Positions 27,390 to 51,211 of a DNA stretch of 56,176 nucleotides are shown one piece after another; the stretch's first letter is position 1, and the number at the start of each line of letters is the position of its first letter. The notes under the pieces are model-generated. The model saw only the letters and a list, made by a program, of their open reading frames with translations. It searched no databases and was not told where the DNA came from. This DNA comes from a virus (Duplodnaviria; Caudoviricetes): positions 1 to 56,176 of the IMG/VR virus record IMGVR_UViG_3300036976_000004; one strand, 5' to 3'. The position numbers and the translations under genes are program-made.

Positions 27390-27510
27390 GTTTTTTTGTT
27401 TTTGTTTACACAAAGATAGTTATAATATTATTTAGAAACAAATTAAATAGCCCGATCAATCGACCGGGCTATAAACCTAAAAACTAAACAAAAACTAATA
27501 TATGGAATTG

Positions 27511-27584
27511 TGCGCCATTTAGGAATCGAACCTAAGACCTTCTGATTATGAGTCAGATGCTCTAACCAACTGAGCTAAAGGCGC
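27511..27584 (-). tRNA. tRNA with CAT anticodon (probably Ile2, possibly Met)
   Basis: gcgcctttagctcagttggttagagcatctgactCATaatcagaaggtcttaggttcgattcctaaatggcgca cloverleaf; no encoded CCA. Confidence 0.88.
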
Positions 27585-29168: not shown

Positions 29169-30587
29169 TTATTTAAAAAGCTGCGGATAAATAACTCTTA
29201 ATACATAAGAAAGCCCAGCTAATGAATCTAAAGCGTCATCTTTTTGATTACTCCCACCTTCTTTAGTTACCCGGAATGCTTCTTTCAGAAAGTTTATCAT
29301 TTCTAAGCTCTCTGGATTCTTTGGAAAGTAAAAGTTCTGCTCAATGAACCCGGCTTGCGCTGCCATTCGCTGTATCTTGTTTTTATTGTTTCTAATGGGT
29401 TTTATTGGTAGCTTAGTCCCTTTGATAATATTAGACATAAATAATCGCCCTGCGCTATTAGTTTCGATATATGTACTATCTAATTCGTTTTGCTCTAATC
29501 TCGCTAAGATAAGAGGTTCTAATACTGTTAAATTACTCTTACTGAATAATGCGTCTGTTAGATACACCTTTCCGTTAACAACCTTAACAGATGGGAAAGC
29601 TGTATTATCTGTTCCATCGTCAGCGGTGTCTATGTATCCTATCTTTACTCCGTCTATATCATTTAATTCATCGTAGTAATTACAGTTCTTAGGGTTAATG
29701 ATTAAACCTTCAGATGGTTGAGGGTCTTGCATATATTGTGTCTGGAATACGTGAGAAGTTTTAGGACTTTTAGCAAGCTCCATTATCTTATTCATTGGCA
29801 TTTTCCAAGGCCATAAACTTTTATCTTTGTATATGATAGGATAAACTAAATTAATTGCTTTAGGATTGTCTTTGTATAGTTCTAGAAAATAAGCTGTAGC
29901 ATCTTCTATCCCTGCTCTTTGCTGAATATTAATTATTGGTGTATCTGGGCTGTTCTTACGACTTAATATAGTATTACCTATTACACGTGTCACTTTAGAG
30001 TTAACCGCTGTCAAAGCTTCTGAATCATCTGTTTTATTAACATCGTCAAGCACTATACATCCTTCGAAATTTCTTATGTATTCTAATAGGTCAGCATCAA
30101 CCATTTGCCCTGCTCCAAACCCGGTTATCTGACCAAATATGGTAGCTGTTTTAAGTCCTCCCCCTTGTGTTGTTCTCCATAGGTTTTTAGCATTCTGATC
30201 TTTCTTTAATTCAACACCATACATTAGTTTAAAATGTTCATCGCTTACTATGTCTCTAATCCTAGTTGAAGTCTCTGAGCGTAATTCATCAGACGCAGTA
30301 ATGTAAAGCCAATTAGATGAAGGATTCATACCTATACCCCTGGATATAAAATTAACCGCTGCTAACTCTGTCTTACTAAATCTCGGAGGAATGTTGATAC
30401 CTAGATACTCAAGCTCGTAATTCTGTACTTTGTGCAGATGTTGGCATATGTCATCGTGATGCCAATTAGTTATAAACTTTTGATTACGTAATCTTTTATA
30501 AAAATATCGCGTAAAGAATAATAAATCATTATCACACTTTACACGACATACTTTTAATTTTTTGATTAACTCGTTATCTACACCCAT
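29169..30587 (-). CDS. terL: Terminase large subunit
   Basis: NIPPRFSKT Walker A, IVLDD Walker B, TQYMQDP, IDTA and DDALDS nuclease motifs. Confidence 0.92.
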   Translation of the reverse strand: MGVDNELIKKLKVCRVKCDNDLLFFTRYFYKRLRNQKFITNWHHDDICQHLHKVQNYELEYLGINIPPRFSKTELAAVNFISRGIGMNPSSNWLYITASDELRSETSTRIRDIVSDEHFKLMYGVELKKDQNAKNLWRTTQGGGLKTATIFGQITGFGAGQMVDADLLEYIRNFEGCIVLDDVNKTDDSEALTAVNSKVTRVIGNTILSRKNSPDTPIINIQQRAGIEDATAYFLELYKDNPKAINLVYPIIYKDKSLWPWKMPMNKIMELAKSPKTSHVFQTQYMQDPQPSEGLIINPKNCNYYDELNDIDGVKIGYIDTADDGTDNTAFPSVKVVNGKVYLTDALFSKSNLTVLEPLILARLEQNELDSTYIETNSAGRLFMSNIIKGTKLPIKPIRNNKNKIQRMAAQAGFIEQNFYFPKNPESLEMINFLKEAFRVTKEGGSNQKDDALDSLAGLSYVLRVIYPQLFK

Positions 30588-31105
30588 TTCTTATTATTAA
30601 CTATATCCCAAATAACTCTTTGATTAACACTATACTCTTTAGCTAATGCTCTTTGGGAATAATTACCGGATGAATACTTTTGTCTTATCTCTTGAACTTC
30701 TCTCCTGGTTAGTTTACTGCATGGATTTTCTTCTCCTTTTCTTTTTATCAACCCGGTTTCAATACCATGATTAACATTTTCTTTAGGGGTGCACCATTCT
30801 AGATTAGCAGCACGGTTATCTGTCTTAATTCCGTTTTTATGATTAACCTGTGATTTGTTTTCAGAATTTGGTATAAATAATTCAGCAACTAACCTATGGA
30901 TTTTAACTGTTTTACTTTTACCTGATATACTTAAATCAACTTCGCTATATCCGTATCGAGTCTTTTTCTGTTTAAGTGTTCTGCCATTATACTTACGATT
31001 AAATCTATCAATTCTGTCTAATGATTTAATATTACCTAAATCACTAACCATATAGTAAGATTCATAACCTATTACAGGTTTCCATATTTCTTTTTCAACA
31101 TTCAT
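30578..31105 (-). CDS. NUMOD4-HNH homing endonuclease
   Basis: EIWKPVIGYE..Y.VSDLG; IHRLVA, VNHKNGIKTDNR..NLEW; C-terminal HTH. Confidence 0.92.
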   Translation of the reverse strand: MNVEKEIWKPVIGYESYYMVSDLGNIKSLDRIDRFNRKYNGRTLKQKKTRYGYSEVDLSISGKSKTVKIHRLVAELFIPNSENKSQVNHKNGIKTDNRAANLEWCTPKENVNHGIETGLIKRKGEENPCSKLTRREVQEIRQKYSSGNYSQRALAKEYSVNQRVIWDIVNNKKWV

Positions 31106-35856: not shown

Positions 35857-35938
35857 GCTGTTTATTTTTTAGTAACGTTTCACAACTTGAGATATAAAAA
35901 ATTGAAATAACTTTTCATATCTATGTTTTATAGGGCAT

Positions 35939-36280
35939 TTAACCCTCAATCGTCTGTGAACAGTACGCTTTGTTGGCTATATAGTCAACAGCGTAAACCT
36001 TGCCTCCATATTTGGTTTTGCAGTTGCTTAAATAGTTTTGCAATGTGTCTGGCCACACATCTATTTCATTATCATTATCGTCTTTAAATCTCCATCCACC
36101 AAATTTGTTCGGCTTCGCACACTCTGGTATCATTACGGCAATTGTTTGCCATTTATCAAGCGGTACAAGTAAATCATAGTCATTGCTTTCAATATCCTCA
36201 CCCATTAGTTTTTTAGCCTGTGAGCCAACCAACAAAGCTCCGTGTACGCACATTAAATATACTGTTCTTGGTAAAATCAT
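35939..36280 (-). CDS. Minimal nucleotidyltransferase-like protein (cassette cargo)
   Basis: LVGS...DYDLLV...EIDVW pol-beta superfamily signature. Confidence 0.55.
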   Translation of the reverse strand: MILPRTVYLMCVHGALLVGSQAKKLMGEDIESNDYDLLVPLDKWQTIAVMIPECAKPNKFGGWRFKDDNDNEIDVWPDTLQNYLSNCKTKYGGKVYAVDYIANKAYCSQTIEG

Positions 36281-36415
36281 AATAAAAACACCCTATAACA
36301 ATGTATATAATTCAGTGGTGTTATAAGGTCTATTTAAACCACTGTGCAGTTTTGTAATTTTATCGGTATGCGAAAAGTCCTGCAATCAATAGCCACCGAA
36401 ATCATATACTAAACG

Positions 36416-36610
36416 TTAGGCAACATTTCTGTACCTAATATATAATTTACCGTCAAATAATCTCCAACCTATTTTATGCGGTTTCCCTTCATTCTCATAT
36501 CTCCACCAAATCATAAGCAGTTTGTGTTTTTCATTTACTTTTTGCAACCAATAATAAAAATGTTGCCTAACATTTTGTAAATGTGATTTGGGTTTATTCT
36601 CGTTATTCAT
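36416..36610 (-). CDS. Hypothetical protein starting inside attC-like hairpin
   Basis: GTT core lies inside the ORF (..QNVRQH); stop lies within GCCTAAC. Confidence 0.5.
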   Translation of the reverse strand: MNNENKPKSHLQNVRQHFYYWLQKVNEKHKLLMIWWRYENEGKPHKIGWRLFDGKLYIRYRNVA

Positions 36611-36697
36611 CTCTATATCAATTTATTAAGTTAATACTATTTTTGTAGTGTAGTGGGTTCAATCCCAAACTACACTTACAATTTGCGTTAGGCACAA

Positions 36698-37012
36698 TTA
36701 TCTCAATTCAATTTCTGTAACTTGTGCCGTGGGCAAATCCCAGTTTATTTCATCATACCAAAATGGCTTTGGCTTATCGTAATTACCATCATCATAATAA
36801 TGGGCTATTCGGTCTTTATTGTTTTCAATAATGCGGTTATATTTATCCCGCCATTTTTCAGCTCGTTCTTTATCGGCAGTAGCAAATATGTGGCGTTCGG
36901 TGTAATCTTCGTATTGCCCACTACATACCATTACCAAGTAAATAACTGTGCCTAACAACGTATCATACGCCATTGGCTTGCTGTCATTTGTAGTTTCTTT
37001 CTTTGTTGTCAT
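36698..37012 (-). CDS. Hypothetical protein starting inside attC-like hairpin
   Basis: ..YDTLLGTV encoded by attC right arm and core; IYLVMVCSGQYEDY motif. Confidence 0.6.
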   Translation of the reverse strand: MTTKKETTNDSKPMAYDTLLGTVIYLVMVCSGQYEDYTERHIFATADKERAEKWRDKYNRIIENNKDRIAHYYDDGNYDKPKPFWYDEINWDLPTAQVTEIELR

Positions 37013-37087
37013 TATATCAAGTATTTAAAGTTTTGTAATTCTAATTAAAAGCCAACAGGCGCATATACAAACCTTTGTAAAACATTA

Positions 37088-37125
37088 CAAATCTAAACAA
37101 TTCTTTATTAAGAATCAATATGTAT
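37088..37125 (-). promoter_or_regulatory. Gap-11 promoter heading cassette locus C
   Basis: caaatcta 37088-37095; attaagaatcaatatgtat 37107-37125. Confidence 0.65.
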
Positions 37126-37312
37126 TAGGAGGTTTTGAATATTTACGCTTAGGTTTATTCGATTCAGATACTAATGATCTAAGATATAACTTTATCTTAT
37201 TGATAGTCTCAGCATATTCTTGTGCTGATAGCTTTCCTTTATTTGCTATCAACAATAACTCCTGTGCTTTTCTTTCATAATTCATTTGCTCGGTGTTCAT
37301 TTTTATTAACAA
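37115..37312 (-). CDS. Hypothetical protein (start probably 37285)
   Basis: Operon member. Confidence 0.45.
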   Translation of the reverse strand: MLIKMNTEQMNYERKAQELLLIANKGKLSAQEYAETINKIKLYLRSLVSESNKPKRKYSKPPNTY

Positions 37313-37538
37313 TAAATTCCAGCCATTTAACCGGGTCTTGCCCTTCGTGTTTTAAGCTATTGATTGCGGTTGCTATTACATCCGCTAACTCTTCGTAGTA
37401 TTCGATATCTGTGTTACTAGATTCAACTTCATTTACTTATTCTTTTAATTTTTCAATAAAATCGAATCTGGAAGTAAGCGGAGTAATACAACCCCGCTTT
37501 ACTATACTATTGTAATTTCTTTCTATTAATTCTCGCAT
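37275..37538 (-). pseudogene. MazG-like pyrophosphohydrolase with in-frame TAA (37437-37439)
   Basis: ..FIEKLKE*VNEV...YEELADVI..; the stop replaces the second Glu of the EExxE motif. Confidence 0.65.
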
Positions 37539-38713
37539 TGATCTAATAAGCTTGTTTGTTTGTTACCTTCCTTGAATCTATTATTAACTTGTTCAAGATT
37601 TATTTTTGATTGCTTAAAATAGCTATCTTTTAATTCAATTCCAATAGCCTTACGACCTAGTGAGACAGGACTATAAACTTCTGATCCAACACCCATAAAT
37701 GGAGTTAAAACAACTTCACCAGGATTTGAATATAATTCTACTAATCTATCAATCACATCTAATTGTAAAGGGTGAACGTGTTTCTCGTCGTCATCTTCCT
37801 TTGAATCACGGAAAGGTAATACATTATCAATTCTTATGTCATCCCAAACAGACGATGCGTAACGCTGCCAGATGTAATGACTTAATTTATTACTTTTTGG
37901 GTCTTTATGATCTTGATACTTATTGTTCAAGTGTTCCCATAATTGAGATGCATTCAAATTTGATTTATTAGCATTATTCCAAGCTTGTAGAATGTTTGGT
38001 AATATTGGAGTTTCACCAAAATACCTTTTTAATCCGTTTGGATGTGTTACCGGAACTTTGTTTTCTCCTTTTTTAGTGAAAATTAATACATAATCAGGCA
38101 TTGCGGTGAAGCACTTTGTTGAATCTTCTACAATAAACTTATGCATTAATGATTGAACCATTGTACGCATACGAACTTTTAAAGGCTCTTTCCATATCGT
38201 TATACGGTTTCTGTATTCAAATCCGTATTTCTCGTGTATTTTAATTATTTCGTGTGGAAAATCCCAAAGACGGCAAGTGTTATCAAAAACATCTGTACAG
38301 TGAACTGCGGATATTCTACCGGGTTTTGTTACCCTCGCAATCTCTTTTACAAGGAATTCATATTGATCTAAGAATTGTTCTTTTGTTTCACAGTTTGAAA
38401 AATCATTTTCAGAAGAACTGTAATTGTATAATCCAGCAAACGGAGGGGAATATATTGATAAATCAACACTTTCATTTTCTAAAGTTGGTAATACATATAT
38501 GCAATCTGAATTATAAATCGCATAGTTTTCTGTGATAATTTGGTCTTTTACTTTATTTTCAGACACGTTTAAACATTCTGTTATTTCATCTTCTGACACT
38601 TCAAAACCAGCTTTATTTACTCCTTTTTTTATTTTATTAACCATTTGTTTATCTATCTCTTTTATTTCTTCAAGTGTTTTAGGACCTTGTGTAGTCTCAA
38701 ATTTCTTTTTCAT
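37526..38713 (-). CDS. DNA amino-methyltransferase (N4-C/N6-A, beta class)
   Basis: SPPF motif IV; H..P and PFMGVGSE motif I; GIELK. Confidence 0.88.
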   Translation of the reverse strand: MKKKFETTQGPKTLEEIKEIDKQMVNKIKKGVNKAGFEVSEDEITECLNVSENKVKDQIITENYAIYNSDCIYVLPTLENESVDLSIYSPPFAGLYNYSSSENDFSNCETKEQFLDQYEFLVKEIARVTKPGRISAVHCTDVFDNTCRLWDFPHEIIKIHEKYGFEYRNRITIWKEPLKVRMRTMVQSLMHKFIVEDSTKCFTAMPDYVLIFTKKGENKVPVTHPNGLKRYFGETPILPNILQAWNNANKSNLNASQLWEHLNNKYQDHKDPKSNKLSHYIWQRYASSVWDDIRIDNVLPFRDSKEDDDEKHVHPLQLDVIDRLVELYSNPGEVVLTPFMGVGSEVYSPVSLGRKAIGIELKDSYFKQSKINLEQVNNRFKEGNKQTSLLDQCEN

Positions 38714-38716
38714 GTC

Positions 38717-40084
38717 TTATAAAAATTTAGGTTTAATAATTTCTTGATTAAATTCTTTCTTGGTTTCGGTGTATGATCTATTAACGTTTTTAGTTAAATT
38801 CTCATACAACTCAATAGCCTTTTGCGTTTTTTGCTGCAAAGATTCTAAAACTCTTGTTTGCCCGTCAGAGATAACCATATCAATAGTAACATCTCTTTTT
38901 TGCCCGAATCTCCAGAATCTACGGATAGCTTGGTAATACTGTTCATAACTCCATGTAGGGAAAAATACAGAATGATTACAATGTTGCCAGTTAAGCCCCA
39001 TTCCAGTCATCTTAGCTTTAGTTATAATCCTTTCGATGTTCCCGTTTGCAAAATTCAGTAGAATATCTTCTTTCTTTTCGATTGACATACTGCCTTTAAT
39101 TTCTACCGCATCCTGATCTAATTCATTCAACAAATCACTTTCATTATTCAGATTACACCAATAAACAGATGTTTTATTTTCTGCTAATTGCACAGCTTTT
39201 TCACAACGATCTTTAATAGTTTGAACTTGTTCGTGTCTTACTTCTGTCATTGTTTTAGCTATAGGTGTGAACATTTGAACTTGTCCGTTAACATCAATTA
39301 ATGATTGATTTTCTACAACATGTTTAACTGTATCTAGTTTCGGTAAAATATATCTTTCGTCTGAAAATCCAATATCTGACGGCATTTTAACCATAATAGA
39401 CCATTGATTTACCCATGCAAAGAAATCCTTTTCAGCGTGAGGTTTTAAATAGTATTTTTCACCAATATTACGAGCGTTACTATCAGATGAATTTTGATTG
39501 TTTTTAAAGAATTTACCTAACATATCCATATACCCCATATACCCTAACGCCTCCGAACTTGTTCCAAGCTCGATAAAATCGTTAGGACTTGGTGTAGCTG
39601 TACTAAGAAATCTATAAGGAATTTTTTTCACAAATGCGGTCACCTGGTTTTTAATCTTACCGTCAAAGTTTTTAAGGATTGAGCTTTCATCAAGAATTAC
39701 AGCTTCAAAATCTGAACTATTGAAATAATGTAATCTTTCGTAGTTACAAATAACTATTTTCTTTGTGTAATTACCATCTTTCGAATATTCAATATCATCA
39801 ATACCCATTTTTTCAGATTCAATTAAGAATTGAAACGCTACAGCTAAAGGAGTTAGGATAAGTACAGGTTTATTCGTGTGACGGATTATATTGTTAGCTA
39901 TTGATATTTGGATTAATGTTTTTCCTAATCCAGTATCAGCAAATACAGCCATACGACCTTTGTTTACAGCTTTTTCAATTATATATCTTTGAAAATCGAA
40001 AGCCATATCAGGTATGTAGTTTACTTTTATCCCTTGATCGTTAATTGAATGCTTTTTTGATTCTATAAATTCTTGGTATTTCAT
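38717..40084 (-). CDS. SF2 (SNF2-like) helicase
   Basis: DTGLGKT, LDESS, STATP, GLNWQ and QAIRRFWRFGQ motifs. Confidence 0.88.
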   Translation of the reverse strand: MKYQEFIESKKHSINDQGIKVNYIPDMAFDFQRYIIEKAVNKGRMAVFADTGLGKTLIQISIANNIIRHTNKPVLILTPLAVAFQFLIESEKMGIDDIEYSKDGNYTKKIVICNYERLHYFNSSDFEAVILDESSILKNFDGKIKNQVTAFVKKIPYRFLSTATPSPNDFIELGTSSEALGYMGYMDMLGKFFKNNQNSSDSNARNIGEKYYLKPHAEKDFFAWVNQWSIMVKMPSDIGFSDERYILPKLDTVKHVVENQSLIDVNGQVQMFTPIAKTMTEVRHEQVQTIKDRCEKAVQLAENKTSVYWCNLNNESDLLNELDQDAVEIKGSMSIEKKEDILLNFANGNIERIITKAKMTGMGLNWQHCNHSVFFPTWSYEQYYQAIRRFWRFGQKRDVTIDMVISDGQTRVLESLQQKTQKAIELYENLTKNVNRSYTETKKEFNQEIIKPKFL

Positions 40085-40279
40085 ACTTCGTTTTTGTTTC
40101 AGCTAATATACTACTTATTTAGTTTAGAATTAATCTATATAACGATTTTACAACTTAATATATAAAAAATAGCGGCCGTTATGCTCCAAACAATCTAATG
40201 AGTTATTACTTATACGTTGTACACCGCTACTCAAGCCTGATTTTACCGCTACTTTTCATATCTCATTAGTTAGGCATAA

Positions 40280-40483
40280 TTAAGCTGGCGAAATATCGCA
40301 GTTCCATTGCCATAGCTTCATCATATCATCCCACCAAATGCTTATATCCTTGGTTTTATATCCGCATTTCTCAAGTAAGTGCTTTCTTATGTCTTCCTCT
40401 TTTACTGGGTCATTTGTTTTGCCCTCTGCAAACCCATCACACGGGTTATCTCGTATTTCAAATTCATCTCGTTTTAGTTCCAT
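40280..40483 (-). CDS. Hypothetical protein (cassette cargo)
   Basis: Bounded by complementary cores. Confidence 0.6.
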   Translation of the reverse strand: MELKRDEFEIRDNPCDGFAEGKTNDPVKEEDIRKHLLEKCGYKTKDISIWWDDMMKLWQWNCDISPA

Positions 40484-40622
40484 AATAAAATAACTATGCC
40501 TAACAATTTGTAAAAATAATAGCCTAGTTAGGCGGTTTATTTAAGCTATTACTGTAATTAATTATCGTTTCAGTTATTCGAATTTTTCGCAACTAAACAT
40601 AGCTACGGGCGTTACATTCCAT

Positions 40623-40958
40623 TTAATCACGCATGTACCACGGTTTATAAACTTGCTCTTTTTTCTTACAGTGTGCTCCTAACCCATCATGCAATTCCCC
40701 ACAGCTATTGCATCCATTACTTTGTATGGTGTGCTCGCAATCATCACACAAAGGAGCACCACATACCAGTCCTATTGTTTCGGGGCACTCTCTTGTTGCT
40801 TGTGCTCCACAGCTTACACATTTTATTCCTTTGTGTTCTTCGCAGAATCCACTTTCATCTGCTTCTTTTCCACATTTGCCAACCCACGCCTTATCAAAAC
40901 GGCATGTAACACTATGTAAAGTGCATGGCTGTTCGGTATTTGAATTTTCTGTACTCAT
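40623..40958 (-). CDS. Cys/His-rich putative zinc-binding protein (cassette cargo)
   Basis: Multiple CxxC/CxxH; N-terminus ..PCTLHSVTC encoded by attC arm. Confidence 0.6.
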   Translation of the reverse strand: MSTENSNTEQPCTLHSVTCRFDKAWVGKCGKEADESGFCEEHKGIKCVSCGAQATRECPETIGLVCGAPLCDDCEHTIQSNGCNSCGELHDGLGAHCKKKEQVYKPWYMRD

Positions 40959-41047
40959 ATCTAAAACTGCTTTAAGTTTTGAAATTATGTGGCTTTGTTT
41001 AAGGCAGCCACAACACCTTACATTTTCAAAGATAACACTATTATAGT

Positions 41048-46005: not shown

Positions 46006-46941
46006 TTAGAATAACTCAGGTAAAGATAATTTTACTTGTGCAAAAATAAAATGCTGCAATGTTTTATAATTAATAGTAGGGTTTTTAAATTCCTTAACAA
46101 AATTCCAACTCTCTTCCCTTACAACATCATAATAAACTGTATTTAATAGTCTTGGTATTTGTTTACTGTTAAATCCACCTTTATCAATTTCAATCTTAGC
46201 TTTCACTTTTTCGCAAAGTGCTGTAGTTACATATTTCTTTGCAATTTCTTCTTCTACCATCTTTTTACCTTCAACTTTTGGAGTACCCATTACTTTAGAA
46301 TGTCTTTCTTTAAATTCAGCAGTAACTATTTTAGCCCATGTTTGTCTACCGTATTTATTGAAGAAATCATAATTTTTAATTACAATACCTTCACCAGTCC
46401 CTTTACCGTCTTGAATTAAGAATACATTCTTTTCAAGCTGATTAATGAATTGCTCATAGCTTGCACGCTCAATTATAGCTAATGGTGGTATGTAATCAAT
46501 ATTATGTTTCTCTAGTAATGGTTTGTATTCGTGGTAATGTAAGTATTTGTGCTGACTATCTCCTTCATGTTTAATTTCGCTTTCATCTTTATCTATAGCA
46601 ACATCAAATACATAGAAATGCCTCCAAGAATCTTCTCTATATGTTTTTAAACTATGAGGGACTAACCATTCACCGAACAATCTATGCGTAGGATTCTCTT
46701 TTAGATAAGCTATTAAATTATCTTGCTCTTTAGCCCATTTACAAAAACCTGCATTATCATTTTCAATAGTTAAATGCCTTTTACGGCTCCCGGCTTGTAA
46801 TTCTCCGTTTTCATCAATCCAAATACTAGCATTTGTTCCGTCGATTTTAGGGAAAATATAACATTCACCTAATTCAATGTTTTCTACTTCGGTAGTGCCG
46901 AATCTTTCAATGTGTTGATACTTTTTAAATTCTTTTCTCAT
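46006..46941 (-). CDS. ATP-dependent RNA ligase family protein
   Basis: KIDGTN motif I; FGEW, FYVFD, EGIVIK and AKIV motifs. Confidence 0.75.
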   Translation of the reverse strand: MRKEFKKYQHIERFGTTEVENIELGECYIFPKIDGTNASIWIDENGELQAGSRKRHLTIENDNAGFCKWAKEQDNLIAYLKENPTHRLFGEWLVPHSLKTYREDSWRHFYVFDVAIDKDESEIKHEGDSQHKYLHYHEYKPLLEKHNIDYIPPLAIIERASYEQFINQLEKNVFLIQDGKGTGEGIVIKNYDFFNKYGRQTWAKIVTAEFKERHSKVMGTPKVEGKKMVEEEIAKKYVTTALCEKVKAKIEIDKGGFNSKQIPRLLNTVYYDVVREESWNFVKEFKNPTINYKTLQHFIFAQVKLSLPELF

Positions 46942-48850: not shown

Positions 48851-49005
48851 TGCACCACAACGTTAAATATATGGCAAGTTGGGTATTAAGATGTGCTACC
48901 CTATCGAGCCACAACAAAGTAAATTAACAGCACAAATATTGCAAACTGGCACACGCCCCCAATTTGCTATATACATTGTTATAGGGCGTTTTTAATACTA
49001 AAACA

Positions 49006-49326
49006 ATGATTAATTATAACACAGAATTTCTGATTAGAGTAAAGGTAAACGACTTTTATCCTAGCAATTGGTACACTTACCGCACAGAGCGAAAAATAAT
49101 AGGTTTTATTACAAGAAAAGCAGGGATTTACAGAGAGGTATTTGAAGACTATTTAGGTGAAAAAGTGCCAAAAAACCATACTTTAAAAGATGGTGTTGTT
49201 TATGAAAACCCTGAATGTATATTATGCTATGCTGACGGAAGCGAAAAAACCTATTATTTTGACAATAAAAGTGATGCCGTTGAATTTGGAGCAAAGTTTA
49301 CCGTTGGTGATAAATGGGTGAATTAA
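49006..49326 (+). CDS. Hypothetical protein (cassette cargo)
   Basis: Bounded by complementary cores. Confidence 0.65.
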   Translation: MINYNTEFLIRVKVNDFYPSNWYTYRTERKIIGFITRKAGIYREVFEDYLGEKVPKNHTLKDGVVYENPECILCYADGSEKTYYFDNKSDAVEFGAKFTVGDKWVN

Positions 49327-49420
49327 ATGCCCTATAACTAAACATAGATATGAAAAGTTATTTCAATTTTTTATATCTCAAGTTGTAAAATCTTTATTTA
49401 AACGAAAAAAATATAATATT

Positions 49421-50584: not shown

Positions 50585-51211
50585 ATGGGAACCTATAAAA
50601 CATTATCGTCAATAGACGTTAACAATAAAACCGAAAAGAAGAACGGATTAATATATTTATCATGGGCTTATGCATGGGGGGAGACTAAAAAGAAATATCC
50701 AGAAGCTAAATATGAGATTCTTAAAAATGAACAAGGATTACCATATTTTGAAAGTGAGTTAGGTTATATGTGTTTTACAAAAGTAACTATAGATAATGAG
50801 ACTCACGAAATGTGGCTTCCTGTTATGGATGGGGCTAATAAAGCTATGAAAAAAGAATCTTATACTTATAAAGTAAAGGATTGGAACGAATCAAGGGCAC
50901 AGGGTAAAGATGTCTATAAAGATAAAACAGTTGAAGCGGCTACAATGTTTGACGTTAATAAAACTGTTATGCGTTGCTTAGTTAAGAATTTAGCTATGTT
51001 TGGTTTAGGGCTTTACATTTATGCTGGTGAAGATTTGCCAGAAGTTCAGGAATCAACATTAGAAGAAGCTTTATCAGATGTTAAAGCAGTGAAAACAGAA
51101 GCGGAGAGAGGTTCGGTTTGGTCACAACATAAACACTTACAATCTAATGAAGAATTTGTTACTGCAATTAAAAAGAAAGCTAAAGAAATAAAAGAAAATG
51201 AAACGAAGTAA
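50585..51211 (+). CDS. Sak3/DUF1071-type single-strand annealing protein
   Basis: YLSWAYAW, MWLPVMD and NKT.MRCLVKNLAMFGLGLYIYAGEDLP motifs. Confidence 0.85.
   Translation: MGTYKTLSSIDVNNKTEKKNGLIYLSWAYAWGETKKKYPEAKYEILKNEQGLPYFESELGYMCFTKVTIDNETHEMWLPVMDGANKAMKKESYTYKVKDWNESRAQGKDVYKDKTVEAATMFDVNKTVMRCLVKNLAMFGLGLYIYAGEDLPEVQESTLEEALSDVKAVKTEAERGSVWSQHKHLQSNEEFVTAIKKKAKEIKENETK

Follow-up and report, generated by a model that had tools for sequence, protein, structure and literature searches.

We analysed the complete virus record IMGVR_UViG_3300036976_000004 (IMG/VR; Duplodnaviria; Caudoviricetes), a stretch of 56,176 bases rated 100% complete and hereafter called the window, which we label a Flavobacterium-type phage. 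Judging from its sequence, the segment 35880-41037 of this phage is probably an array of integron attC-type sites without an integrase (cluster of attC sites lacking an integron integrase, CALIN), in which the sites are reversed with respect to the genes that they separate, and some of them would provide the ATG and a short N-terminal leader to the cargo gene that follows. As far as the literature was searched, three things are new: a family of ~130-nt sites found throughout Bacteroidota, its reversed position before open reading frames (ORFs) in phages, and the in-frame leader, joined to the cargo at the core, that about a quarter of the phage sites give. The family, which is not in Rfam 15, links Flavobacteriia phages to chromosomal arrays of Bacteroidota. 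With a start and a first stretch of 13-22 aa supplied by the site, captured pieces of genes could be turned on in modular fashion. The arrangement thus touches two open questions, the birth of integron cassettes and the expression of cargo that lacks a promoter or a start codon.

Array of sites and cargos

Six imperfect palindromes of ~130 nt, with ..AAC and GTT.. cores at their ends, lie on the minus strand between 35880 and 41037 and separate six cargo units. All six were detected strand-specifically (E 2e-10 to 0.02) by R1, a covariance model built from bacterial (Bacteroidota) sites alone, with which the window was searched with filters off; the E-values of R1 are only roughly calibrated. 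On the opposite strand the same places scored 11-15 bits (14.5 against 61 bits for S2, 13.3 against 33.6 bits for S4). Read from 41037 to 35880, the order is S6, ORF3, S5, the ORF starting at 40483, S4, a helicase-methyltransferase block, S3, ORF2, S2, ORF1, S1, the ORF starting at 36280 and a weak end site:

40904-41037, minus strand: site S6; R1 27.8 bits, E 1.2e-3; ATG of ORF3 in the loop at 40958; 3′ arm, spacer and core encode ..QPCTLHSV; 5′ core ATC, not AAC
40623-40958, minus strand: ORF3, 111 aa, Cys-rich; leader is residues 1-17, cargo begins at the core GTT ACA TGC
40498-40617, minus strand: site S5; R1 22 bits, E 0.018 over the whole window and 0.0014 in a local search; 5′ arm degenerate
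40280-40483, minus strand: cargo ORF, 67 aa, own ATG; GTTAGGCATAGTTA and TAATTATGCCTAAC at its flanks (inverted repeat I16)
40148-40275, minus strand: site S4; R1 33.6 bits, E 7.7e-5, also found by a separate hairpin detector; helicase ATG ~63-64 nt beyond the site end
37115-40084, minus strand: large cargo, comprising a helicase (38717-40084), an N6/N4 DNA methyltransferase (37526-38713) and a small ORF (37115-37312)
36950-37080, minus strand: site S3; R1 30.5 bits, E 3.3e-4; ATG of ORF2 in the loop at 37012, ATG of M14 in the 3′ arm, TTG over the core; 5′ core AAA, not AAC
36698-37012, minus strand: ORF2, 104 aa; core TTG TTA GGC ACA encodes LLGT
36565-36693, minus strand: site S2; R1 61 bits, E 1.9e-10; intact, both cores GCCTAAC / GTTAGGC; ATG of ORF1 in the loop at 36610
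36416-36610, minus strand: ORF1, 64 aa; leader MNNENKPKSHLQN, then V from the core GTT; stop TAA inside the 5′ core of S1
36293-36421, minus strand: site S1; R1 53.4 bits, E 6.8e-9; ORF 35939-36280 begins 12 nt beyond the site end
35880-35931, minus strand: weak, short site-like hairpin; R1 20.2 bits, E 0.042; 3′ of ORF 35939-36280 and possibly the end of the array

Both cores are present in S1, S2, S4 and S5; S3 and S6 keep the 3′ GTT, with AAA and ATC at the 5′ end. The 3′ half of S5 is nearly identical to sites in four other loci (L006, L016, L124 and L146). The 7-mer GCCTAAC/GTTAGGC occurs eight times in the window, seven of them within 36415-40533, for an expectation of 3.06, and eight copies were reached in 1 of 100 shuffles. 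With the hairpin detector, seven sites of the window scored at least 11, against 0-1 per shuffle in six Markov shuffles.

The 7-mers stand as inverted pairs around the cargo ORFs, and their inner flanks match their own partner only. The arms of these cargo-flanking repeats are 26 nt long at 88% (I1), 15 nt at 93% (I11) and 14 nt at 93% (I16), and the variant core pair of ORF3, GTTACATGCC and GGAATGTAAC, is complementary at 9 of 10 positions. Similarly, the large cargo is bracketed by the 3′ core of S4, GTTGTAA, and the 5′ box of S3, TTACAAA, which agree at 6 of 7 positions after one is reverse-complemented; the helicase-methyltransferase block may itself be a 3-kb cassette. Two complementary cores around one cargo are the known mark of a crossover whose position in the folded site is fixed. 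Cargo-specific complementarity between the cores on either side was also seen in L034, L053, L099, L183 and Cellulophaga phage phi19:3, and the ends of cassettes in bacterial arrays are complementary too. Transposons with terminal inverted repeats, or of the IS200/IS605 type, were considered and dropped: the elements have only the 7-mer in common, and their inner flanks differ from one element to the next, yet are complementary within each.

Cargo genes end at the sites, as the first-pass annotation had claimed when it noted stops abutting or overlapping the ..AAC core. The stop of ORF1 lies inside the core (GCC-TAA-C), and for ORF2, ORF3 and ORF 40280-40483 the distance from the end of the stop to the 7-mer is 4 nt. 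From the end of ORF 35939-36280 to the weak site it is 7 nt, and from that of the last ORF of the helicase block to S3 ~34 nt. A motif [AC]GTT[AT]T recurs ~9 nt past the GTT core (range 9-15 nt; for example at 36941-36946 and 40489-40494, and in many other loci). The motif complements the region of the stop codon (TAA) at the far end of the cargo, so that the paired outer stem reaches 14-15 bp, into coding sequence.

Start codons inside the sites

It had been noticed at first reading that three ORFs begin in a hairpin loop and read through the right arm and the GTT core. Their coordinates and N-termini were confirmed, and the three sites concerned, S2, S3 and S6, were recovered independently by R1. 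In the R1 alignments the ATGs of ORF1 (36610), ORF2 (37012) and ORF3 (40958) lie between the 5′ and the 3′ arm, in the loops of S2, S3 and S6 respectively, and the three frames enter the cargo by way of 3′ arm, spacer and GTT core, with the first 13-22 codons encoded by the site. At the remaining three array sites the ATG comes 12 nt (S1), 15 nt (S5) and ~63-64 nt (S4) past the site end.

Residue conservation bears on where translation begins. In ORF3, the conserved first Cys (codon 19) is preceded in frame by a single ATG, GTG or TTG, namely the ATG at 40958. In ORF1, the invariant residues Q16, F18, Y19 and W21 precede the next Met, M33. The invariant columns of ORF2 start at V23, right after LLGT, and its possible starts before V23 (M1, M14 and the TTG over the core) all lie within the site. 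Because conserved residues precede every later start codon, we infer that ORF1 and ORF3 are forced to initiate inside the site, and the leaders would then be translated. The proposal that the recombination site doubles as a translation-initiation module is thus supported in its core by sequence comparison, with predicted forced starts for ORF1 and ORF3.

Of the 18 leader ORFs found at phage sites (see below), 13 have the core GTT in codon phase 0, hence the leaders usually end in Val. At first reading it was also suggested that RNA folding may gate translation; among S2, S3 and S6, only S2 was predicted to fold better than shuffles, as a full hairpin with the AUG in its loop (z -4.6; none of 200 shuffles as good). 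Minimum-energy DNA folds were set aside, as they favoured local hairpins and missed the long S2 site, which the RNA fold and the covariance model showed.

Leader and cargo as separate modules

Comparison with related loci supports the view that leader and cargo are separate modules joined at the core. Two related loci break precisely at GTT: L101 has the same upstream hairpin, ATG and 17 codons as ORF3 and diverges right after GTT, and L099 has the ORF3 cargo at 83% from GTT on, behind a different leader. In a third locus, L100, there is no leader, and the cargo has an ATG of its own that stands two codons ahead of the first Cys. Together with the invariant columns of ORF2 that begin at V23, these breaks bear out the expectation that similarity begins at the GTT core.

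The ORF3 family exists in both states, mostly as ordinary genes with their own ATG and in a minority fused at the GTT core to several site-encoded leaders. In 88 of the 120 ORF3 relatives listed, no more than 8 residues precede the first Cys. Leaders of 9-25 aa ending in [VIL][TIV]C were found in 15 (the window protein included) and longer ones with the same ending in 2; leaders of another kind, 9-25 aa long, occur in 7, long extensions in 4, and the motif is missing from 4. The 88 relatives with their own start have no leader. ORF3 belongs to no Pfam or PHROG family.

The converse case, one leader on several cargos, was also seen, in agreement with the idea that like leaders should occur on unrelated proteins. 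The first 23 bases of the ORF3 leader are present in six metagenome loci, and the 17-aa leader MSTENSNT.. stands before seven cargos in eight loci (L101 and the window included). Apart from two identical loci, no pair of these cargos gave a BLASTP match with E <1. An alignment of six MSTENSNT.. sites has a mean identity of 86%; conserved positions crowd into the stretch from the AAC to the GTT core and are nearly lacking beyond it. In this alignment, pairing between the leader codons of the 3′ arm and their partners in the 5′ arm holds in 90.8% of cells, against 26-48% in slid controls, and the window copy carries two compensatory changes that turn ID or IN of the peptide into LH. The leader peptide looks like a by-product of the stem, since its codons co-vary with the 5′ arm. 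With one site-plus-leader on seven unrelated cargos, the rules of the junction (core, phase and end complementarity) become directly testable.

For the two other ORFs, one relative of ORF2 has another leader up to TLLGT and two have short N-termini; no relatives of ORF2 were found in viral contigs. All four relatives of ORF1 keep an in-frame leader of the same length, and the leader is less conserved than the body. A blastn search against deposited phages gave no match for the ORF1/ORF2 region and, for the other region, only a 55-nt match to phi19:3. Contigs of one DNA run, which may be the source of the record, showed no variant letters with respect to the window. In the same sample, another contig matches the two site-adjacent flanks of ORF 35939-36280 over 27-29 nt, at 35928 and at 36283, and has 345 different letters in between. 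It may hold another cargo in a like slot of a co-occurring phage; we did not count it as a cassette replacement, the matching sides being too short.

A family of attC-type sites in Bacteroidota

A 22-base pattern taken from the 3′ arm and core of one site matched 20 viral loci and 49 bacterial contigs, mostly of Bacteroidota; 46 bacterial loci were scanned afterwards. Sites of 128-133 nt surround the pattern matches, between ORFs and often several per locus. In an alignment of 32 bacterial sites (138 columns) the two ends, AACG and TGTT, do not vary. For these sites RNAalifold predicted an outer stem of 5 bp, an inner one of 18 bp and an asymmetric internal loop of 6 versus 2 columns; 16 of the 23 pairs show compensatory changes. 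From the 5′ end, the layout is ..AAC-G core, inner stem of ~18 bp with conserved G.T pairs, loop of ~70 nt and T-GTT.. core. Of the G.T(U) pairs, three persist in 30-32 of the 32 sites; as they turn into A.C mismatches on the other strand, they would give the site a defined strand.

A contig of Maribellus sp. (L179/L180) carries 14 sites on one strand between 25.4 and 43.5 kb (2 of the 14 were in the R1 training set), and every ORF of at least 100 aa from 23.4 to 47.8 kb lies on the strand opposite to the sites. At 46.6-47.8 kb, ~3 kb beyond the last site and transcribed in the direction of the cassettes, is a recombinase gene whose product matches NF040815, the XerA/integron-integrase model, with 223.5 bits (cut-off 220) and TIGR02249 with 197 bits (cut-off 265). 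By its sequence this layout is that of a chromosomal integron, and we read the family as integron attC-type sites because the one-strand array of 14 adjoins an IntI/XerA-like recombinase. One-strand arrays of attC-type sites of 129-133 nt were also seen in L108, L127, L135 and L143, and one Lutibacter cassette carries a cytosine-methyltransferase-like ORF.

Searches of Rfam 15 gave only a tRNA at gathering scores in the window, and nothing relevant at E <=1 in the array region or at E <=0.1 in three bacterial loci. We found no description of a ~130-nt Bacteroidota site family in the literature on Bacteroidia integrons; a survey of complete genomes gives one complete integron in Bacteroidetes (PMC9024848).

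Reversed polarity in phages

In a canonical cassette the ORF precedes the site and the coding strand is the non-recombinogenic top strand; the array of the window is the reverse of this. The reversal, also pointed out in the first-pass annotation, is real. At 65 unique bacterial sites, the frame that dominates the 300 nt after the site is antisense in 45 cases and sense in 8, with 10 unclear and 2 at a locus end. For phages, the best 64 of 74 R1 rows (E up to 0.001) and 9 window matches, 73 rows in all, gave 66 unique sites after identical sequences were merged, and only one of these faces an antisense gene. Phage sites thus lie on the coding strand, 5′ of ORFs, and bacterial sites are antisense to genes. 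At 41 of the 66 phage sites a same-strand ORF of at least 40 aa with an ATG begins 9-103 nt past the site (one begins 4 nt before the site end), and at most phage sites this ATG stands ~9-25 nt past it. At 18 the ATG is inside the site, in a frame open for at least 30 codons beyond (three of these ATGs are only 9-23 nt before the site end), and 6 sites have no such ORF. A stricter hairpin detector found an inside ORF at 5 of 72 bacterial sites versus 8 of 32 viral sites.

Outside the array, R1 matched five further places of the window:

48855-48984, plus strand: best-scoring site of the window; R1 73.3 bits, E 5.9e-13; ahead of plus-strand ORF 49006-49326
49332-49388, plus strand: site; R1 24.9 bits
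52492-52583, plus strand: site; R1 43.3 bits
52814-52870, plus strand: site; R1 33.4 bits
1809-1864, plus strand: site in a 56-nt short form; R1 33.3 bits; among minus-strand genes

The best of them stands on the plus strand before a plus-strand ORF, so that site strand follows gene strand. Throughout the window the strand of the site is the coding strand of its neighbours, with 1809-1864 as the sole exception; this short form could be a plain terminator hairpin.

A culturable counterpart with the same architecture is gp033 of Cellulophaga phage phi19:3. In this phage (L102, 7548-8260) both arrangements were seen side by side: gp033 begins in the site loop, with the leader MKKEQNLNNAETQALNIPV followed by V from the core GTT, and gp034 begins 13 nt past the next site. 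Just downstream, gp036 is a tyrosine recombinase, which we did not take for an integron integrase, as its match is XerD-like and weak (27.6 bits). R1 also matches Polaribacter phage P12002L, beside the methyltransferase genes gp38 and gp54. In locus L006 (3040-3240) an upstream ORF crosses the whole site and stops at the TAG of the core GT-TAG-GC, as ORF-11 does in attI1.

Proposed mechanism and alternative explanations

In the reading of 35880-41037 as a reversed, integrase-less attC-type array, the site would act as a portable start module for cargos without a start of their own. Classical attC sites are cleaved at the 5′ core, between AA and C. By analogy, the G.T-bearing strand would be the recombinogenic bottom strand, cleaved at the same point of the 5′ AAC; use of the bottom strand in integron recombination is described in PMC2727003. 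Cleaved there, a phage cassette would consist of the site and the cargo downstream, and the leader would move with its cargo. This would account for unrelated cargos that bear near-identical sites, a situation known from chromosomal integrons whose sites are homogeneous. The exchange may be carried out by a host IntI-like enzyme acting site-specifically. Alternatively, the ORF-proximal GTT could be the place of exchange, or the Sak protein of the phage could mediate homologous recombination among similar sites.

Several points weigh against this reading. A six-frame translated search of the complete record gave no match to tyrosine recombinases (PF00589, NF040815) or serine recombinases (PF00239), that is, no complete integron was found, and any site-specific exchange therefore needs a host enzyme. 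Extrahelical bases are a hallmark of classical attC sites, and no extrahelical or bulged base was seen in the consensus of the 32 bacterial sites. The Maribellus recombinase is under the cut-off of the integron-integrase model TIGR02249, and it comes from the one array-plus-recombinase locus inspected. Within the window, S3, S5 and S6 have weak R1 scores, S3 and S6 are without an intact 5′ AAC, and the RNA folds of S3 and S6 are not better than those of shuffles (z -0.8 and -0.65). ORF2 could begin at M14 or at the TTG over the core, not at M1. The phase-0 bias is suggestive, being partly forced (with GTTAR cores the third frame meets TAG or TAA) and drawn from mutually related sites. The window and L099 have the ORF3 cargo in common but neither flanking site, which the integron rule of one site per cargo does not predict; exchange at the ORF-proximal GTT or Sak recombination fits this better. 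The arrangement is also sporadic among relatives, since R1 gave only 13 matches, in 8 of 80 phage loci that share the helicase. Finally, a search of sequencing runs found the stretch in one DNA run, with no RNA run listed.

The sites could instead be intergenic regulatory cassettes, made of a stem-loop, expression signals and a start, and be shuffled by Sak-dependent homologous recombination between the ~130-nt copies, with no integron-type recombination in the phage. We regard this as a minority possibility, which concerns the mechanism of exchange only and is compatible with site-encoded starts. The phage does have a Sak annealing protein and no site-specific recombinase, its sites, on the coding strand, keep a regular distance from the ORFs that follow them, site and cargo are units bounded by cores, as crossovers in or at the edges of repeats would give, and a like proposal exists for T4-type phages (PMC2839356, PMC4122927). 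Against it speak the one-strand array that the same family forms beside an IntI/XerA-like recombinase in a bacterium and the cargo-specific complementarity of the flanking cores, the mark of a fixed crossover point. No promoter was seen in the 3′ arm either, where a by-eye comparison with the Bacteroidetes -7/-33 consensus gave no convincing match. It is improbable that the leaders are mere annotation artefacts, with true starts at or after the core and the upstream ATGs in chance open extensions through an AT-rich hairpin. Such extensions would sit well with the 41 of 66 phage sites where the ORF starts past the site, with the three inside starts close to the site end and with the ATG (M14) and TTG available to ORF2; those two alternatives are, however, also within the site. 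They would not explain why the first Cys of ORF3 and the residues Q16 to W21 of ORF1 lie upstream of any later start, why all four relatives of ORF1 have an in-frame leader of equal length, or why one leader is open and in frame on seven unrelated cargos. Least probable, in our view, is that the GTTAGGC..GCCTAAC pairs delimit invertible segments, DNA inversion flipping the gene body off. Inverted repeats of 14-26 nt do flank each cargo, and after inversion the ORF2 leader would run into a stop within ~9 codons, an OFF state; but the phage has no invertase, cassettes of bacterial arrays have similar complementary ends, and related loci hold unrelated cargos, not flipped ones. One run showed no strand-changing joint, which is weak evidence as only contigs were covered.

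Starting from the reversed attC-type array with site-encoded starts, we tentatively suggest a broader generalization, which we consider possible although doubtful: reversed attC-type sites of Bacteroidota phages may be portable 'start exons', each bringing its ATG, an initiation region and a structurally dictated leader with its phase-0 end at GTT, so that start-less pieces with compatible cores could be captured in frame and expressed. If so, the junctions of this cassette system would be phase-compatible. A route by which genes with their own start (88 of 120 ORF3 relatives) become cassettes would also be visible, a matter of relevance to the origin of integron cassettes, which is unsolved.

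Comparison with known systems

CALINs have been described in virulent phages, including Polaribacter phage P12002L, and IntI1 recombined 5 of the 6 phage attC sites tested (Qi et al. 2023, PMC9892861); two sites of P12002L were assayed in that work. As in the window, the cases given there have attC-type sites between ORFs, no integrase, DNA methyltransferase cargo and, in one case, a phage infecting Flavobacteriaceae. The main text of that paper does not mention start codons or leaders inside the sites (the term 'start codon' occurs 0 times), and of the P12002L sites it says only that they have 'divergent directions'. Effects of orientation in integron arrays are treated in PMC5371416.

Starts inside a recombination site are known from attI1, where a review (PMC8876359) places ORF-11, ORF-17 and ORF-18. 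Common to ORF-11, ORF-18 and the window are a start inside the site and a frame across the crossover core, and ORF-11 is described in the review as helping cassettes without an initiation region. According to the same source, however, ORF-11 lies in attI, normally ends at the TAG of the core GTTRRRY and gives a separate 11-aa peptide acting by translational coupling. The sites of the window are of the attC type, and the frame runs in phase into the cargo, giving ORFs of 64-111 aa with a fused leader. By analogy, the window element would work like ORF-11, of whose family it is not a member. Short ORFs in attC sites have been proposed to relieve the barrier that the stem-loop opposes to ribosomes (PMC8876359). 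They resemble the window elements by initiation inside an attC hairpin, which in the window is predicted from the DNA sequence, and by an interplay of hairpin and expression, which in the window would be possible. As the review presents them, they are separate short ORFs, in sites of canonical orientation 3′ of their own ORF, and act by termination and reinitiation; in the window, site orientation is the opposite and the cargo is itself the ORF.

In sedentary chromosomal integrons, such as those with Vibrio repeats, the attC sites of an array are homogeneous. The window resembles these arrays in that near-identical sites of ~130 nt part unrelated cargos, flanking cores are complementary and stops abut the site. 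It differs in that the ORFs are reversed with respect to the site strand, the replicon has no integrase or attI, and the 18-bp inner stem is uninterrupted, contains G.T pairs and has no bulges. A last parallel is with the promoter/stem-loop (PeSL) cassettes of T4-type phages. To our knowledge, no PeSL encodes N-terminal codons. There too, conserved intergenic stem-loops flank variable small ORFs and modular shuffling has been proposed (PMC2839356, PMC4122927), but the PeSL consist of an early promoter joined to a terminator stem-loop and are unrelated to integron sites, unlike the module of the window, which is homologous to sites of bacterial attC-type arrays.

Relatives of the helicase block and other genes of the phage

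The helicase-methyltransferase block shows ~76% DNA identity to Flavobacterium phages and, over window positions 37072-40154, ~80% protein identity in at least 598 viral contigs. When 80 helicase-relative loci were searched by tblastn, the common genes were the helicase and the methyltransferase, with almost no other neighbours from the window, which made a presence/absence comparison of the small cassettes impossible. The plain 7-mer occurs in these loci at 0.074 per kb, close to the estimated chance rate of ~0.056 per kb, and a general enrichment of the motif was dropped. In one of them (L039, 1420-1654) we counted ten copies of GTTAGGC, nine within this span, with 8 of 9 spacings equal to 18 nt; they look like a tandem repeat unrelated to the hairpin sites. 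A pattern scan with 16 loci was discarded as mostly chance coding matches, read as a cytosine methyltransferase motif, and only L006 and L016 were relevant.

Minus-strand genes fill the window from ~28 to 48 kb. The other genes of the phage mentioned in this work are the following:

50585-51211: Sak single-strand annealing protein (PF06378, E 9e-52)
46006-46941: RNA ligase
30578-31105: HNH/NUMOD4 endonuclease, adjoining a terminase-like ORF
27510-27584: tRNA-Met, the sole tRNA of the window

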